Positions 2,596 through 17,788 of a stretch of DNA of 51,157 bases are shown here, piece after piece. Numbering within the stretch: position 1 is the first letter of the stretch; every line of letters begins with the position of its first letter. This stretch comes from a virus (taxonomy: Duplodnaviria > Heunggongvirae > Uroviricota > Caudoviricetes). The translations under genes were made by a program, and so were the position numbers. The notes beneath the pieces were generated by a model. That model was not told the origin of the DNA, ran no database searches, and saw nothing but the letters and a program-made list of their open reading frames with translations. The stretch lies in the IMG/VR virus record IMGVR_UViG_2925877141_000001; one strand, written 5' to 3'.

Positions 2596-3481
2596 AAAAA
2601 ATGAATTCCCAATAATTCAAATTGAGATTGCAAAAATAAAATTTCTTAACCCACGAACAAGAAATAAGTTAGTGCATGAAGAAATAAAGGAAAGCATAAA
2701 AAAAAGAGGATTAAGCAAGCCTATAAGCGTAAGAGCTATTGATGAAGGCGATTTCAAATATGCTTTAATTTGTGGTCAAGGGAGAATAGAGGCTCTCGTT
2801 GCATTAGGTGAAACTATTATTCCAGCAATTATAAGAGATGTATCAGAAGAAGATGCTTACGTTATGAGTTTAGTTGAAAACATTGCAAGGAGAAGACCAC
2901 GTTCTAATGAGTTATTACAGGTGATTAAAGACATGAAAATCAGAGGACTTTCAGACTCCGAAATAAGTGAGATTACTGGATATTCATCGAACTGGGTGAG
3001 CAGTATTAATATGCTACTTGATAAGGGAGAGCATAAACTTCTCTCAGCAGTCGAACGGGGTAATTTGCCTCTGTATCTCGCAGTGCAATTTGCAAGATGT
3101 GAAACTGAGGAAGCACAAGATATTCTTACCGAAGCATATGATAAAAAATTAATAAAAAGTCGGGACATTATAAAGATAAAACACATTCTAAATCAAAGAA
3201 CAGTTGGGAATAAAGGTGCAAAAGCAGCCGGATTTTATTATCACAAACCATCAAAAAGGATGACTGCAGAGGAGTTGATTGAGCTTTATGAAAATAGTAT
3301 CGCTGAACATAAATCTGTTTATAACAACTCAAAATTCATAAAAACCAACCTACTAATAGTAAATGAGATTTTTAACATCATAATGATGAATAAAAGCTTT
3401 CAACATATACTTGAACAAGAGAATCTTTCAGAACTACCATCTCAGATATTAACCCCAGTAAACAAAGAGGTATTAAAATGA
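2585..3481 (+). CDS. ParB/Srx-fold N-terminal domain + HTH protein (ParB-like 1)
   Basis: Overlaps upstream gene by 11 bp; ParB-box-like GQGRIEAL motif followed by HTH-like segment (GLSDSEISEITGYSSNWVSSI). Confidence 0.6.
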   Translation: MLPEKNEFPIIQIEIAKIKFLNPRTRNKLVHEEIKESIKKRGLSKPISVRAIDEGDFKYALICGQGRIEALVALGETIIPAIIRDVSEEDAYVMSLVENIARRRPRSNELLQVIKDMKIRGLSDSEISEITGYSSNWVSSINMLLDKGEHKLLSAVERGNLPLYLAVQFARCETEEAQDILTEAYDKKLIKSRDIIKIKHILNQRTVGNKGAKAAGFYYHKPSKRMTAEELIELYENSIAEHKSVYNNSKFIKTNLLIVNEIFNIIMMNKSFQHILEQENLSELPSQILTPVNKEVLK

Positions 3482-6161: not shown

Positions 6162-6412
6162 AAAAAACTTTCAGGCAGCTAAGGAAAGTTGAACCAGACA
6201 TTAGATGAAATATTTCAACCAATTACAGCACCAATTCAGTCACTGCCAGCCCACCAAATAAATCAAGGGGTTACATGAAAACGTAGCCCCTTTTTCTTTG
6301 GTAGTGACACTAAAATGGATGTAGTGTGAAGAATAATCCCGTTTACTCAATCAATAATACATATTGTTTCAATCTACGTTATTATCTCTTTGTAAAAATT
6401 GCCATTTATTAA

Positions 6413-6813: not shown

Positions 6814-7680
6814 CTAAGCGAGGTTCTTGTTTTCAAATTGTTCCGGACTGAGGCCGCCACACCAACTGTGCCGCCGCCACCGATTGTAATCACATTCGAT
6901 ATAATTAAACACCGTTGCCCGCATTATTTCCCGGCTGATAAAGTGTTCTCCATGGATACATTCCACTTTCAGCGAATGAAAGAAGCTTTCCACGCAGGCA
7001 TTATCGTAGCAGCAACCTTTTGCGCTCATACTTCCACGCAGATTATGCCGCTTCAGTTGCGCCTGATAATCTGCTGAACAGTACTGGCCTCCACGGTCCG
7101 TGTGAACGATAACGTTCCGGGGCCTCTTACGCCGCCACAGCGCCATCTGCAGGGCATCGCAGGCCAGTTGCGCCGTCATGCGTGGCGACATTGACCAGCC
7201 AATAACGGCACGTGACCACAGGTCAATGACCACTGCCAGATACAGCCAGCCTTCATCTGTACGTAAGTACGTGATGTCTCCTGCCCACTTCTGGTTCGGG
7301 CCACTGGCGTAAAAATCCTGCTCCAACAGATTTTCTGACACAGGCAGGCCGTGTGCGCGGTAGCTGACCGGGCTGAACTTCCGGGAGGCCTTTGCCCTCA
7401 GTCCCTGACGGCGCAGGCTTGCCGCCACGGTTTTTACGTTAAAGGGGTAACCCTGAGCACGCAGTTCATCCGTCAGGCGTGGGGCACCGTAACGCTGTTT
7501 TGACCGGGTAAAAGCCGCGAGGACAACGCTGTCGCAGTGTTGGCGGAACTGCTGACGCGTGCTTATCCTTGTCCGCCGCTGACACCACGTATACCAGCCG
7601 CTGCGGGCCACCCGGAGCACGCGGCACATTGCTTTGATGCTGAACTCAGCCTGATGTTTTTCAATAAAGACATACTTCAT
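6814..7680 (-). CDS. insF: IS3 transposase orfB (InsF)
   Basis: 288-aa translation [22 protein letters not shown]...EQFENKNLA recognised as IS3 InsF with DDE region. Confidence 0.85.
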
Positions 7681-14282: not shown

Positions 14283-15107
14283 TCAGGCGGTGAAAGTCCC
14301 AATAAAGGTTTCTACTTTGCTGTCCTTGAATTTCTCAACAAGCAGATCACGAAATTCGTTAGCCATATCTTCCTGCACCGCTTCCAGCTGAATAATGCGC
14401 AGAACCAGTACAGGACGATCGCCAGTGATAATGCTGAGGCGTAATTTAAACGGACGTTCTTTCAGACCTTCAAATGGAACGCATTTAAACTCAAATGCCA
14501 CTGGCATAATGTCTTTGGTCTTCGCTTCGACAGACTCCATCAGGGAGCGTTTGCCGCTGAAGTCATTATCTTCAAAATCAGCAGTCTGGTTTGCTTCAAT
14601 CGTGATTTTACGGACCGCCGCAGCCGCTTTTGTTGCCTGAATCGTGTCACCATTAGCATCAAAGCCCACAAGGTAGTCGGCCCAGTCTTCAATCCATTCT
14701 GCCAGTGACTTCTGGGAGTTACGCTCGCCGTTAACAGACAACAGAGCAGAGAACGGTGCTGTCTTTTTCAGTTTGAGTGTGGCGGTGTTATCTGCGTGAC
14801 CTGGTTCATCAATAGTACCCAGGTTAAGCACACTGACGGCTCGCATATTATCAGCATCGATAAAGCAGCGGGTGCCTTCATCTGCAAGATCTTTAGAATA
14901 ACGGGTAAAGTCATCGATGCTGGCAGTGGAAAGCGCACCACGGAAACGGAAGCGATTTAAATTAAATTTTTCCAGATCATGAATGCGGAAATTCTCAGGC
15001 AATGCCACAGCATCGGCACCAATCTTACTGATAATTTCATTAACACCCTGAGCAGAAATAAGGGCATGGATTTGATTAATTGCGGTTGCGTCTAAGTTCT
15101 GAGACAT
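14283..15107 (-). CDS. Phage early-region protein, possibly YfdQ/DUF2303-like
   Basis: 274-aa ORF with GAGGA RBS; family assignment from memory only. Confidence 0.5.
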
Positions 15108-15172
15108 AATAAGTCCTCACTATATAAAGATATTCAGTGATGAGATAAATAATCAGTTAATTAAAAACGATA

Positions 15173-15535
15173 TTAACGACCTGCTGCGCGGAGTTTTCCG
15201 TCAGGTTCACCGGCAAGAGTCAGTAACTGTCCCTGGTCTTCCTGCAGAATAGTCAGGCGACCACCGCGATTGACATACATCGGCGTTTCGGTGGTGTCTT
15301 CTTCGGAAATTTTCCCGCGGTTAGTCGGGCGAACATATGAGAGTTTGTGTTTGATTTTCACTCGGTTCTCATCAAACGGTTCGATTTCCAGGTTGAGCGA
15401 GACCTTACCTTTGGTTTTCGTGTTCATCACACCGGAAGCGACTTCACTGAGAACTGCGCCGATTTTGGTTTCAAATACGCCGCCGTCCAGCTCCCCGATA
15501 AATGCCTGCACATCAGTACTGCGTTCGCTAGCCAT
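15173..15535 (-). CDS. Small phage early-region protein
   Basis: ATG at 15535 (MASERSTDVQAFIGELDGG...) with GAGGAG upstream; the longer ORF-track N-terminus is judged non-coding. Confidence 0.5.
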   Translation of the reverse strand: MASERSTDVQAFIGELDGGVFETKIGAVLSEVASGVMNTKTKGKVSLNLEIEPFDENRVKIKHKLSYVRPTNRGKISEEDTTETPMYVNRGGRLTILQEDQGQLLTLAGEPDGKLRAAGR

Positions 15536-15583
15536 TTTGCTGCTCCTCATCATATCGACCCTGCAAGGTCGGTTAGTTTCTCC

Positions 15584-15672
15584 ACAAAACAGAGAAGAAC
15601 ACCTGCGGTGACTGCCGCCCGGATGGATTGGGTTATGAGCCCGTCGTCCGGTGATGCTCTTCTCTGTTTTGT
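15584..15672. repeat. Long inverted repeat (16-17 bp arms, ~55-nt spacer); start of a cluster of hairpins in a non-coding stretch
   Basis: ACAAAACAGAGAAGAAC (15584-15600) pairs with GCTCTTCTCTGTTTTGT (15656-15672); further hairpin GGTACCAGC...GCTGGTACC at 15682-15716. Confidence 0.5.
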
Positions 15673-16003
15673 AAAAAGGACGGTACCAGCCGGAAGCAAG
15701 GGTACAAGCTGGTACCGCCAAGACTACACACAGCATAAAGTTGTGGTGCCGGGTGCCTCCCGGTGCCTGGCGAAGGTTGCACACCAGGCGGGTGGGTATC
15801 CACAGAAGGTCGACTGTCAGCCTCAACCTTAACCCGCGTGCGCTGAGCCGCATTCACCACAACGCTAAGGATTCTCTCTGGTTGAAAATACTTAGCTGTT
15901 ATGTGCCTGCTTTTAGCCACATCAGGCGAGGTGGACCTAGTTATTCCCCAACAACAAGGATTCGGTTAATCTGGTTATCCCCAACAACGCAAAAGGAAAA
16001 GAA

Positions 16004-16438
16004 ATGTCCGGTAATATCTATACGCTGTACAAATCCCACTGTGAAAATGTTGGAAAGTATCGGGGCATTGAAATCAGTGGGGTAGTGTCATCAGTCGAAA
16101 TAAGCAAAGTTGAATCAAGGGCAACATTACTTACTCTTTTGGACCTTGTCTTACATGAGCACCGGAAGAAATTCGGCACTCCCTATAATCAGTTGAATGG
16201 GAAAAAGGCTCTGGTTCACCTTATTCTGATGAAGCATCACTGGATGCCAAAACAGATTAATGAGATGAAATTTGATGAACTTCTTCTTTCAATTCAGGAT
16301 GAACTCACACTTGATAAAATAAGCGTAACCGCCCAGAAATTTTTAGATTATCGAGACTGGAGATCACAAATTCATCACTTTGATGATTTTGACGAAAATG
16401 AATGGGATCCTAATTTGTCTGCACAATATCTAAAGTAA
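16004..16438 (+). CDS. Hypothetical protein in immunity-proximal region
   Basis: 144-aa ORF on the strand opposite the early-left genes; no recognisable domain. Confidence 0.45.
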   Translation: MSGNIYTLYKSHCENVGKYRGIEISGVVSSVEISKVESRATLLTLLDLVLHEHRKKFGTPYNQLNGKKALVHLILMKHHWMPKQINEMKFDELLLSIQDELTLDKISVTAQKFLDYRDWRSQIHHFDDFDENEWDPNLSAQYLK

Positions 16439-16616
16439 CATCCTGTGATAAAACCGTGATTTCCTGATCCAGTTTTTTTAAGGAGTCTATTGTTTCCTGT
16501 CGATAAGACAGCACTTCACGAAGCTGGTTTATAGCTGCCAGCTTCTTTGTCATCCACTCATAAATTTCCTCATCTGTGTAGCCAGGCGCGACGATTTTGG
16601 GTTCTGTTTTGTGCAT
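16410..16616 (-). CDS. Hypothetical small acidic protein downstream of cI
   Basis: ORF MHKTEPKIVAPGYTDEEIYEW...; 3' end overlaps the convergent 16004-16438 gene. Confidence 0.4.
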   Translation of the reverse strand: MHKTEPKIVAPGYTDEEIYEWMTKKLAAINQLREVLSYRQETIDSLKKLDQEITVLSQDVTLDIVQTN

Positions 16617-16863
16617 TTCACATCTCCTCAAGTTATCAGTTACTTGTTGATGGGGACCAGATTCTTAAAGAGCTAAGCGTCCTGTAGGGCGCTTTTTTGT
16701 TGCTAACGAATCATCCTGGACTTCATATGCCCCAGGCGGCTACTTCGTGGGCGTCCTGCCTGTTCGTTATCTTTGATATAAAATCTAACTTAACTTAGTT
16801 ATTATGGCAAGAGAAAACACCAAACTTTTCTTAGTTCGGTGCCTTAGTTAGAGAAGAGAGGTC

Positions 16864-17490
16864 TTAGAGTTCGTATTGAACTCCTTTGACTACACCAATG
16901 ATAAGGCAATTACCATTGATAGGGATGTTGGGATACCGAGGATTTAATGGCACTAAAAACTTTTGAGGGCCATCGATGACTAATTTTTTTACTGTAGCTT
17001 CGTTTGTTCCATCAAGTCGAGCGATGACTATTTTTCCATGACGAGGTTCTGCATCTGGATCTACAATCACTGTTGCGCCTTCTGGTATTGTTGGGAGGCC
17101 ATTAGGGTTAGTCATGGAGTCACCTTTAACCTCTAATGCAAATGAGTTATCACCAATCTTTAATGATGTATCTACCCACTTGTCCACTTCACTAAACACT
17201 TCTGCTGCCCTGCACTCAGTAAACTGCCCAGCCTGAACCCACGATATTACAGGAACTCTGCGCATGTTTGTGACGAGTTTGCCTTCAAACTCAGCACCAT
17301 AAAGAATGTAATCTATTGATGTATTGAAGAACTTCGCTAATTTCGAAAGTGCCTCCCCACCAGGGGTATTGATGTCTTTCTCCCAGTACCCCACAGCAAC
17401 GTCGCTTACTCCACAAAATTTACCCAATTCTTTCTGGGACGTTCCGGTAACTCTTCTCAGAGCTTTTATACGCTGACCAACCGTTTCCAT
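16864..17490 (-). CDS. cI: CI-type prophage repressor (HTH + LexA/S24 peptidase-like domain)
   Basis: N-terminal HTH (GTSQKELGKFCGVSDVAVGYWE) and C-terminal S24-like segment (LEVKGDSMTNPNG...GKIVIARLDG); divergent from a cro-like gene. Confidence 0.85.
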   Translation of the reverse strand: METVGQRIKALRRVTGTSQKELGKFCGVSDVAVGYWEKDINTPGGEALSKLAKFFNTSIDYILYGAEFEGKLVTNMRRVPVISWVQAGQFTECRAAEVFSEVDKWVDTSLKIGDNSFALEVKGDSMTNPNGLPTIPEGATVIVDPDAEPRHGKIVIARLDGTNEATVKKLVIDGPQKFLVPLNPRYPNIPINGNCLIIGVVKGVQYEL

Positions 17491-17587: not shown

Positions 17588-17788
17588 ATGACAACTGACG
17601 ATATCGAAAGCTACTTCGGCAGTATTGAGAAAGTTGCTGCTTTTTTCGGCATAACAACTGAAGCCGTTTATCAGTGGCGAAACCGTCCGGGCCAGTTAAT
17701 TCCAAAAGGACGTGCAGCAGAAGCTGCATATAGAACTTGCGGACGGTTGCCATTTAAACCTGAGCTTTATGAAAAATCTAATGGATAA
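17588..17788 (+). CDS. cro: Cro-like small HTH regulator
   Basis: 66-aa ORF divergent from cI with GGAG RBS; HTH-like segment (IEKVAAFFGITTEAVYQWRNR). Confidence 0.7.
   Translation: MTTDDIESYFGSIEKVAAFFGITTEAVYQWRNRPGQLIPKGRAAEAAYRTCGRLPFKPELYEKSNG

Follow-up and report, generated by a model that had tools for sequence, protein, structure and literature searches.

Conserved RNA modules in the non-coding gap upstream of yfdP in a lambdoid prophage: a divergent STnc100/PasD-type domain, a DicF-like terminator, and a tRNA-like hairpin

The IMG/VR virus record IMGVR_UViG_2925877141_000001 (Caudoviricetes), analyzed here over its full 51,157 nucleotides (the window), carries at positions 15536-16003, between the early-left genes and the immunity region, a gap in which no gene is apparent, raising the question of what this stretch of DNA does. 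An initial annotation had noted inverted repeats and hairpins in the gap and no N-like gene nearby, and had offered four explanations: an antitermination RNA resembling the put sites of phage HK022, another structured regulatory RNA, a decayed gene, or a small inverted-repeat element. We find that the region is a real, widespread, non-coding feature that is neither put-like nor a decayed gene. It fits best among the STnc100/PasD prophage small RNAs (sRNAs), as a divergent variant joined to a DicF-like terminator and to a tRNA-like hairpin not catalogued before. Probably, the gap is the structured leader of the leftward early operon, made of separable RNA modules that yield a terminated or processed sRNA of the Hfq/CsrA type and then form a barrier of processing and termination.

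Structure, strand, and coding status of the gap

All structure in the gap belongs to the minus strand, which is the direction of the early-left operon. Minus-strand RNA from 15536-15900 folds at -162.4 kcal/mol (z = -8.2, with 0 of 100 shuffles as stable), compared with z = -3.6 for the plus-strand fold, and G-U pairs of the conserved helices would become A-C mismatches on the other strand; for both reasons the minus strand is taken as the structured one. Read in that direction, the order of modules is P0, STnc100/PasD-type domain, linker, DicF-like terminator, three-way-junction hairpin, Shine-Dalgarno sequence, and yfdP, with the following features (MFE, minimum free energy):

15896-15864, minus strand: P0 hairpin GCUAAGUAUUUUC...GAAUCCUUAGC, directly 5' of the STnc100-like domain (inverted repeat I3 and MFE fold)
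15863-15740, minus strand: STnc100/PasD-class pseudoknotted core of the "GCGGC" clade, ~125 nt
15863-15855 / 15748-15740, minus strand: core helix P1
15858-15852, minus strand: core GGUGAAU block
15851-15836, minus strand: core hairpin P2
15830-15824, minus strand: core pseudoknot strand S1a, AAGGUUG, pairing with CAACCUU at 15779-15773 in the S2 loop
15789-15782 / 15772-15765, minus strand: core hairpin S2
15763-15749, minus strand: core hairpin P5, CCGGGAGGCACCCGG
15739-15720, minus strand: single-stranded linker UUUAUGCUGUGUGUAGUCUU between core and terminator, unpaired in MFE and centroid folds
15719-15673, minus strand: intrinsic terminator, stem GGCGGUACCAGC / GCUGGUACCGUCC plus U5 (perfect 10-bp inverted repeat I4)
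15672-15584, minus strand: long hairpin ("module B"), 89 nt (inverted repeat I1)
15583-15536, minus strand: yfdP 5' leader (sequence and folds)

The repeats described in the initial annotation are real, two of them in a somewhat larger form. The long inverted repeat at 15584-15600 and 15656-15672 extends to 25-nt arms (15584-15608 and 15648-15672) that are 84% complementary, and the hairpin reported with a 9-bp stem has a perfect stem of 10 bp (15681-15690 with 15708-15717), followed on the minus strand by UCCUUUUUAC. The GC-rich palindromes comprise CCGGG-AGGCA-CCCGG at 15749-15763 and GUUGUGGUG/CACCACAAC at 15855-15863 and 15740-15748.

The reported lack of a convincing open reading frame (ORF) was upheld. 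No ORF of the gap has a Pfam match, and the sole PHROG match is that of a 49-aa ORF over the long hairpin to phrog_33599, a family of unassigned function that seems to have been built from spurious ORF calls. This frame is without a start codon in 28 of 97 variants, differs after the conserved loop, and tolerates a 1-nt insertion; neither a conserved reading frame nor a protein-family match supports a gene. A decayed protein-coding gene would find some backing in the phrog_33599 match and in public records, where PGAP annotates a "frameshifted hypothetical protein" pseudogene at window ~15550-15860 (L001 2651-2961) and those of Shigella phage SfIV place orf34 and orf35 (SfIV_34, SfIV_35) over the region, including an N-terminally extended YfdP and an antisense ORF. 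All three sets of calls look spurious, lying over structured RNAs in conserved non-coding sequence that is currently annotated as nothing or as spurious or "frameshifted" proteins. Beyond the missing Pfam families and the unkept frame, STnc100-like domains vary in length from 110 to 144 nt, in steps that are not multiples of three, and the RNA helices covary, so that a decayed gene is scarcely credible. The fold, the covarying helices, and the lack of a credible ORF agree instead with the proposal of another structured regulatory RNA in a non-coding region.

An STnc100/PasD-class domain and its DicF-like terminator

STnc100 (RF02076), PasD1 and PasD2, and EcOnc27 (sRNA103) are prophage-encoded Hfq-binding sRNAs of Salmonella and pathogenic Escherichia coli. 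PasD is Hfq-dependent and has been validated by Northern blotting (PMC8550237), PasD and STnc100 have been handled as one family with 3' terminators (bioRxiv 10.64898/2026.05.13.724894), PasD2 is the most abundant CsrA-bound partner (bioRxiv 10.64898/2026.08.12.744399), and EcOnc27 binds Hfq (PMC12711010). The domain at 15740-15863 is a divergent member of this family, with a compact pseudoknotted fold and invariant junction nucleotides. At gathering thresholds an Rfam scan of the window returned only the tmRNA at 50756-51118. In a permissive scan, the full RF02076 model matched 15670-15893 on the minus strand with 43.4 bits (E 1.3e-7), and because this is below the gathering score of 47 we placed the window copy in a divergent "GCGGC" clade. 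Other copies of that clade are also sub-threshold (35.1 bits in Salmonella ST64B, 34.1 bits in Qin; phage P1, L010, L018, L047, and L125 unlisted), whereas canonical STnc100 copies score 87-161 bits. The stack of modules extends the STnc100/PasD family to a clade that the Rfam threshold misses.

Scanning IMG/VR for the 3' block CCGGGARGCACCCGGCACC gave at least 120 stretches, with at least 141 family instances in at least 126 loci. Across the family the invariant blocks are GGUGAAU ... CACCGGGAGGCACCCGGCACC, the invariant nucleotides being GGUGAAU and GGGAGGCA, and among the matches listed GGUGAAU stands 75-111 nt upstream of the 3' block in 130 of 141 instances. Both blocks are present in the window, GGUGAAU at 15858-15852 and (C)ACCGGGARGCACCCGGCACC at 15764-15744, at the family-typical spacing of ~95 nt. 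A MAFFT alignment of 46 sequences (A1) contains 31 invariant columns, concentrated in the two blocks, and RNAalifold recovered four helices from it: P1 as the closing helix, P2 as a bulged hairpin, P3 with 3 bp, and P5 as an invariant hairpin. Compensatory changes were found at eight pairs and fall in P1, P2, and P3. Folding and comparison of relatives, among the checks proposed in the initial annotation, revealed conserved structure with covarying helices.

The core of the family is a conserved pseudoknot with invariant junctions. It is of the H-type, the strand just after P2/P3 being complementary to the loop of S2, the hairpin that precedes P5. The pseudoknot was assessed without an alignment, with S2 set only by its own pairing; MAFFT columns were not used for the covariation counts because the hairpin arms were misaligned by two columns between clades. 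A pseudoknot helix of at least 6 bp forms in 35 of 42 representatives, in 35 different sequences, vs. 15% for shuffled loops and 26% for cross-paired loops. The window sequence forms all of the family elements: P1, the bulged P2, S2 with its loop pairing to the strand after P2, and P5.

The window copy shares with STnc100, PasD, and EcOnc27 the invariant blocks, helices P1, P2, S2, and P5, the 3' intrinsic terminator, a total length of ~220 nt, a lambdoid prophage location, and the operon strand. It differs in its P2, which in the window clade is GCGGC...GCACGC (GCGGC/GC(A)CGC) and in canonical copies CCCCC...GGAGGGG (CCCCC/GG(A)GGG), in the long hairpin that follows it, and in its setting. 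Canonical copies are preceded by Q, tRNA genes, or stx and followed by holin or NanS-p genes, whereas the window copy is not between Q/stx and lysis genes but in the early-left operon before yfdP. A discrete Hfq-dependent RNA has been seen for the relatives PasD and EcOnc27. Among the matches listed, the genes 3' of family copies mostly have lysis, division-inhibition, or toxic functions.

The GCGGC clade was also found in several viral contigs, in phage P1, and in the Qin prophage. In phage P1 (L004 1405-1570, ban operon) the domain ends 36 nt before tciA without a terminator, and its closing helix differs from that of the window by a compensated U-A to C-G change. In the Qin prophage of E. 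coli K-12 MG1655 (L235 1947-2087) the extended clade is represented in the leader of dicB, the gene of a cell-division inhibitor. This domain, unannotated in the record, follows the DicF terminator and precedes dicB. A ~15-bp extension of helix P1 encloses it, its P5 has a compensated change (CCUGG/CCAGG), and its end is 23 nt before the dicB start, again without a terminator. Canonical copies occur in multiples in L016, L025, L012, L074, and other contigs, with two to three on the same strand within ~1 kb (spacings of ~255, 490, and 670 nt), often right behind an array of tRNA genes.

Downstream of the core, the linker and the terminator complete an RNA of the family type. The terminator consists of a hairpin at 15719-15678 (-26.3 kcal/mol, stem of 10-12 bp) and U5 at 15677-15673, and was missed by our terminator scan because its loop is 17 nt. 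An RNA that starts with the P0 hairpin and ends with the U-run would measure ~224 nt, and the 3' intrinsic terminator that closes an RNA of ~200 nt in the STnc100/PasD family is present at this locus. A terminator lies within 160 nt in 89 of 141 family copies among the matches listed. In ST64B, the 20-nt linker is largely conserved (UUAUUGCUGUGUGAAGUCUUG), though the stem at the terminator position is unrelated in sequence; the same CCUUUUUAC tail is retained, and a different hairpin, AAGAGUU...AACUCUU, takes the position of P0. By its position and conservation, the linker at 15720-15739 is a candidate base-pairing (seed) region.

The terminator resembles that of DicF, which is made from the dicBp transcript by RNase III/E processing and termination, with no internal promoter (bioRxiv 10.1101/2023.04.14.536235). 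The 5' arm, UUGGCGGUAxCAG, is nearly the same in both, although the match to the DicF model at 15678-15732 on the minus strand is weak (19.4 bits, E 0.37, against a gathering score of 48) and similarity is limited to that arm; the 5' targeting sequence of DicF is not conserved in the window. Duplex energies with the ftsZ start region were no better than those of shuffles, in a test without power, as authentic DicF was equally non-significant. The two loci agree in having an sRNA-type element between the immunity region and the early-left genes and a GCGGC-clade pseudoknot domain in the same operon. Their order is reversed, however, with DicF, domain, and dicB in Qin and domain, DicF-like terminator, hairpin, and yfdP in the window.

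The long three-way-junction hairpin

The hairpin at 15672-15584 is a conserved RNA motif that is uncatalogued in Rfam. Its closing stem of ~20 bp is topped by two arms, the second of them small and variable. The inner arm, CCGGA...UCCGG, carries CGGGCUCAUAACCC (15643-15630), and 14 nt of the arm (GACGGGCUCAUAACCCAAUCC) are identical to the anticodon arm of the initiator tRNA metY, including the three G-C pairs and the CUCAUAA loop; in relatives the loop varies slightly (CUCAUUA, or a GGG/UCC stem). In an alignment of 16 sequences (A3), 94.5% of cells pair, vs. 38-55% with slid partners, eight pairs have changed on both sides, the covariation score was reached by no shuffle, and frequent U-G pairs fit the minus strand only. 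A permissive scan gave no Rfam family for the hairpin and no match to the tRNA model at E<=10 on 15560-15700, and ARAGORN predicted no tRNA in the window besides the tmRNA.

We scanned viral contigs for this motif and obtained at least 119 instances, such counts being lower bounds. Among the matches listed, a run of at least four T abuts the 5' side of the hairpin in 76 of 119 instances and an STnc100-type domain lies upstream in 37 of 119. The two modules mostly occur alone (126 of 140 cores and 82 of 119 hairpins among the matches listed), and are adjacent in the window lineage and in phage P1. In phage P1 (L004 1405-1570, with the variant ACGGGUUCAUAUCCCAAUC) and some contigs, the hairpin is directly 5' of the pseudoknot domain; in Klebsiella phages it directly follows tRNA-Asn and tRNA-Arg downstream of Q. 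BLAST further showed that terminator, hairpin, and yfdP start (15400-15721) form a mosaic unit common to mEp460, cdtI, and Stx2 phages without the STnc100-like part. The small inverted-repeat element of the initial annotation therefore fits only loosely, in that terminator and long hairpin behave as a mosaic module, with or without the STnc100-like part.

These observations bear on two interpretations of the hairpin. RNase III processing hairpins are known in phage early transcripts, as in the lambda N leader, lambda sib, and T7 R1.1, and the window hairpin resembles them in its near-perfect stem of ~25 bp and in its placement within the leader of an early polycistronic transcript, shortly before a coding region. 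It differs from them at its top, where a tRNA-like loop on a conserved three-way junction goes beyond what RNase III needs. Alternatively, the hairpin could descend from a phage tRNA gene that has degenerated, or be a mobile inverted-repeat element derived from a tRNA, and be kept as a terminator-like structure only, with a loop of no specific role. The 14-nt identity with the initiator-tRNA anticodon arm, the Klebsiella-phage copies directly after tRNA genes, and the mosaic distribution all speak for such an origin. We nevertheless consider it improbable: the loop and inner arm are near-invariant while compensated changes occur in the closing stem and the second arm, every copy lies on the strand that is transcribed, neither terminal repeats nor target duplications were seen, and, with no acceptor, D, or T arms and no match by the tRNA model or ARAGORN, what it shares with metY is the anticodon stem-loop alone.

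Proposed early-left control, alternatives, and setting

To relate the modules to transcription, the following neighboring features are relevant:

15173-15535, minus strand: yfdP, left neighbor and first of the early-left genes yfdP-yfdQ-yfdR, ATG at 15535; annotated in identical RefSeq genomes
16004-16438, plus strand: ECs1072-family gene, right neighbor of the gap
16410-16616, minus strand: 68-aa ORF, right of the ECs1072-family gene
16675-16694, plus strand: strong terminator, ~240 nt after the ECs1072-family gene, inside the pL leader region
16771-16701, minus strand: conserved pL leader RNA, ~70 nt, at the start of the likely pL transcript and outside the gap
16810-16782, minus strand: promoter-like, sigma-70-like site TTGCCA-17-TAGATT (promoter scan), at the position expected for pL
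16864-17490, minus strand: cI-like LexA-family repressor
17588-17788, plus strand: P22-Cro-like gene

The gap is part of the leftward early transcription unit, ~880 nt 3' of the likely pL, because it is flanked by yfdP on the minus strand and lies 3' of the minus-strand pL-like site. A promoter consensus scan of 15100-16200 on both strands found none except a weak minus-strand site at 16250-16223, and a search by eye for a promoter of the domain's own in 15897-15945 found poor hexamers only. As no promoter of its own was detected and ST64B has a terminator-like hairpin just upstream of the domain, the STnc100-like RNA is likely fed from pL.

We propose that loss of the cI-like repressor would allow transcription from the likely pL at ~16782-16810. 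The transcript would cross the 68-aa gene, run antisense to the ECs1072-family gene, and enter the leader, where a stop at 15673-15677 would release an RNA of ~220 nt. Like its relatives PasD and EcOnc27, this RNA could be bound by Hfq and/or CsrA and use the linker to act in trans. Polymerases that read through would enter the long hairpin, whose ~25-bp stem is a plausible RNase III site and second barrier, and which may determine where the yfdP-yfdQ-yfdR message begins and how abundant it is. Qin dicBF would provide a parallel, in that processing and termination free an sRNA from the early-left transcript there, and the toxic gene downstream is reached only by read-through. The elements are in this respect testable candidates for early-left control and for the silencing of toxic early genes in lambdoid phages without N.

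Several points weigh against this proposal. Relatives are the source from which the 5' end, binding by Hfq/CsrA, cleavage by RNase III, and trans targets are extrapolated; the RF02076 score is below the Rfam gathering threshold; and the conserved tRNA-like loop is left unexplained by an RNase III role. A literature search on expression of this locus (ST64B/SL1344 sRNAs, SfIV/SfV early antitermination, mEp phages) returned nothing specific. The domains of phage P1 and Qin are without a terminator and stand 23-36 nt before a start codon, and because of this placement the domain may act in cis. In addition, more than 30 near-invariant unpaired or junction nucleotides are kept across very different contexts, a pattern that suits an RNA binding a protein or ligand better than it does an sRNA scaffold. 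The main alternative, possible although on balance unlikely, is accordingly a pseudoknot domain that serves as a cis regulator, a protein-, ligand-, or ribosome-binding leader gating a harmful downstream gene (the yfdP operon here; dicB, tciA, and holins elsewhere), with the short RNAs of relatives as by-products. Such a role would suit the distances to tciA (36 nt) and dicB (23 nt), the ~52 of 141 copies without a terminator within 160 nt and the phages with two to three copies in a row among the matches listed, the combination of invariant junction nucleotides with freely varying helices, and the mostly lytic, division-inhibiting, or toxic genes downstream. It is harder to reconcile with canonical members, which build up as discrete RNAs bound to Hfq and CsrA and have many partners; moreover, no alternative pairing of the domain with the terminator or the Shine-Dalgarno sequence was found in the window, and no ligand or binding protein is known. 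A still bolder version, which we hold to be a long shot, joins a new class of sensor/effector RNA before lethal genes with a tRNA mimic and the pL leader into an all-RNA early control of N-less lambdoid phages. If true, the STnc100-type pseudoknot would bind a ligand, protein, polymerase, or ribosome ahead of dicB, tciA, holins, and the yfdP operon in lambdoid and P1-like phages, and the hairpin with its exact initiator-tRNA anticodon arm would be a functional mimic, e.g., a decoy or processing signal for an enzyme that recognizes tRNA-fMet.

The put-like antitermination element of the initial annotation can be judged by direct comparison. put RNA suppresses downstream terminators in cis via the beta' zinc-binding domain of RNA polymerase. 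In HK022 it is a two-stem RNA of ~70 nt, with putL at the start of the pL transcript and putR ~270 nt after pR (PMC9378689). We located putL (L006 ~6240-6320, minus strand) and putR (~7455-7520) from the sequence and the published numbering (PMC9378689); in the window, blastn-short and an nhmmer profile of putL plus putR gave nothing beyond chance matches. By this account the nascent domain would bind RNA polymerase and carry it past the terminators of an N-less prophage. In its favor, no N-like protein was recognized near pL, the element is a structured RNA that two strong hairpins directly follow in the long early operon of a lambdoid phage, and family members occur in early and late operons that depend on antitermination. 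The window domain is, however, a five-helix pseudoknot rather than two stems of ~70 nt, is dissimilar to put in sequence and profile, lies ~880 nt 3' of the 16810-16782 site rather than promoter-proximal, and has relatives that terminate at the very next terminator and are released as sRNAs rather than suppressing terminators. With a better-placed conserved leader at 16701-16771 as well, a put-like role for the domain is very unlikely. As to the premise of that idea, the failure to find an N-like gene was upheld in part, in a check of the ORFs beside the likely pL: the 68-aa ORF at 16410-16616 carries no N-like or functional assignment.

The pL leader at 16701-16771 shares the promoter-proximal position of putL and is a better candidate than the gap for an RNA that antiterminates the early transcript in cis in N-less phages. 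In other phages at least 10 unrelated promoter/operator sequences precede it, at a short distance that does not vary. In its alignment (A2) 97.5% of cells are paired, four pairs have changed on both sides, and 0 of 500 shuffles reach the covariation score; the closing stem alternates between AACGAA/UUCGUU and AGCGAA/UUCGCU, and the hairpin among CCUGG/CCAGG, CCGGU/ACCGG, and CCCGA/UCGGG. It has no Rfam family, making it, with the tRNA-like hairpin, the second further conserved RNA motif outside Rfam at this locus. Two short strings, CGAAC(A)GGC and GGAUGA, occur similarly spaced in both the leader and put, yet a covariance model built from 28 leader variants missed both putL and putR (best E 0.49, elsewhere), and we dropped homology to put for this reason. 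In ST64B (L005 ~2940-3070, minus strand; also L128, L133, L211, and L223), a GC-rich segment of ~130 nt separates the pL leader from the STnc100-like domain. It shows long-range complementarity, CUUCGGGAGGGG ... CCCCGCCCGAAG, followed by a terminator-like hairpin, and may be another structured RNA.

The region as a whole is common. The exact 700 bp is found at >=80% coverage in ~895 of 5,426 complete E. coli genomes, the same region occurs in the Shigella serotype-converting phages SfIV and SfV, and ST64B has a diverged form. Near the right end of the window, a complete tmRNA gene (ssrA, 50756-51118, minus strand, tag ANDENYALAA) is consistent with a prophage integrated beside ssrA. The ECs1072-family gene and the 68-aa ORF overlap convergently by 29 nt (16410-16438). 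On the left, the yfdP leader contains GGAGAA, complementary to the terminator U-run, a small hairpin at 15573-15554, and the Shine-Dalgarno sequence GAGGAG at 15548-15543.

On the right, 15897-16003 (plus strand) is the upstream region of the ECs1072-family gene, where a consensus scan found no sigma-70-like promoter on either strand. The motif that had been described as tandem in this region is present in two copies, (G)TTAT(T)CCCCAACAAC at 15940-15955 and 15974-15988, which are 34 bp apart and not head-to-tail. The left ~40 nt (15897-15935) stay with the RNA module when the neighboring gene differs, and 15896-15960 has matches ahead of other accessory genes, among them sieB of a Hafnia phage. 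The CCCCAACAAC repeats recur with the same block beside different plus-strand accessory genes in other loci and prophages, and may be a shared regulatory site of these accessory-gene insertions.

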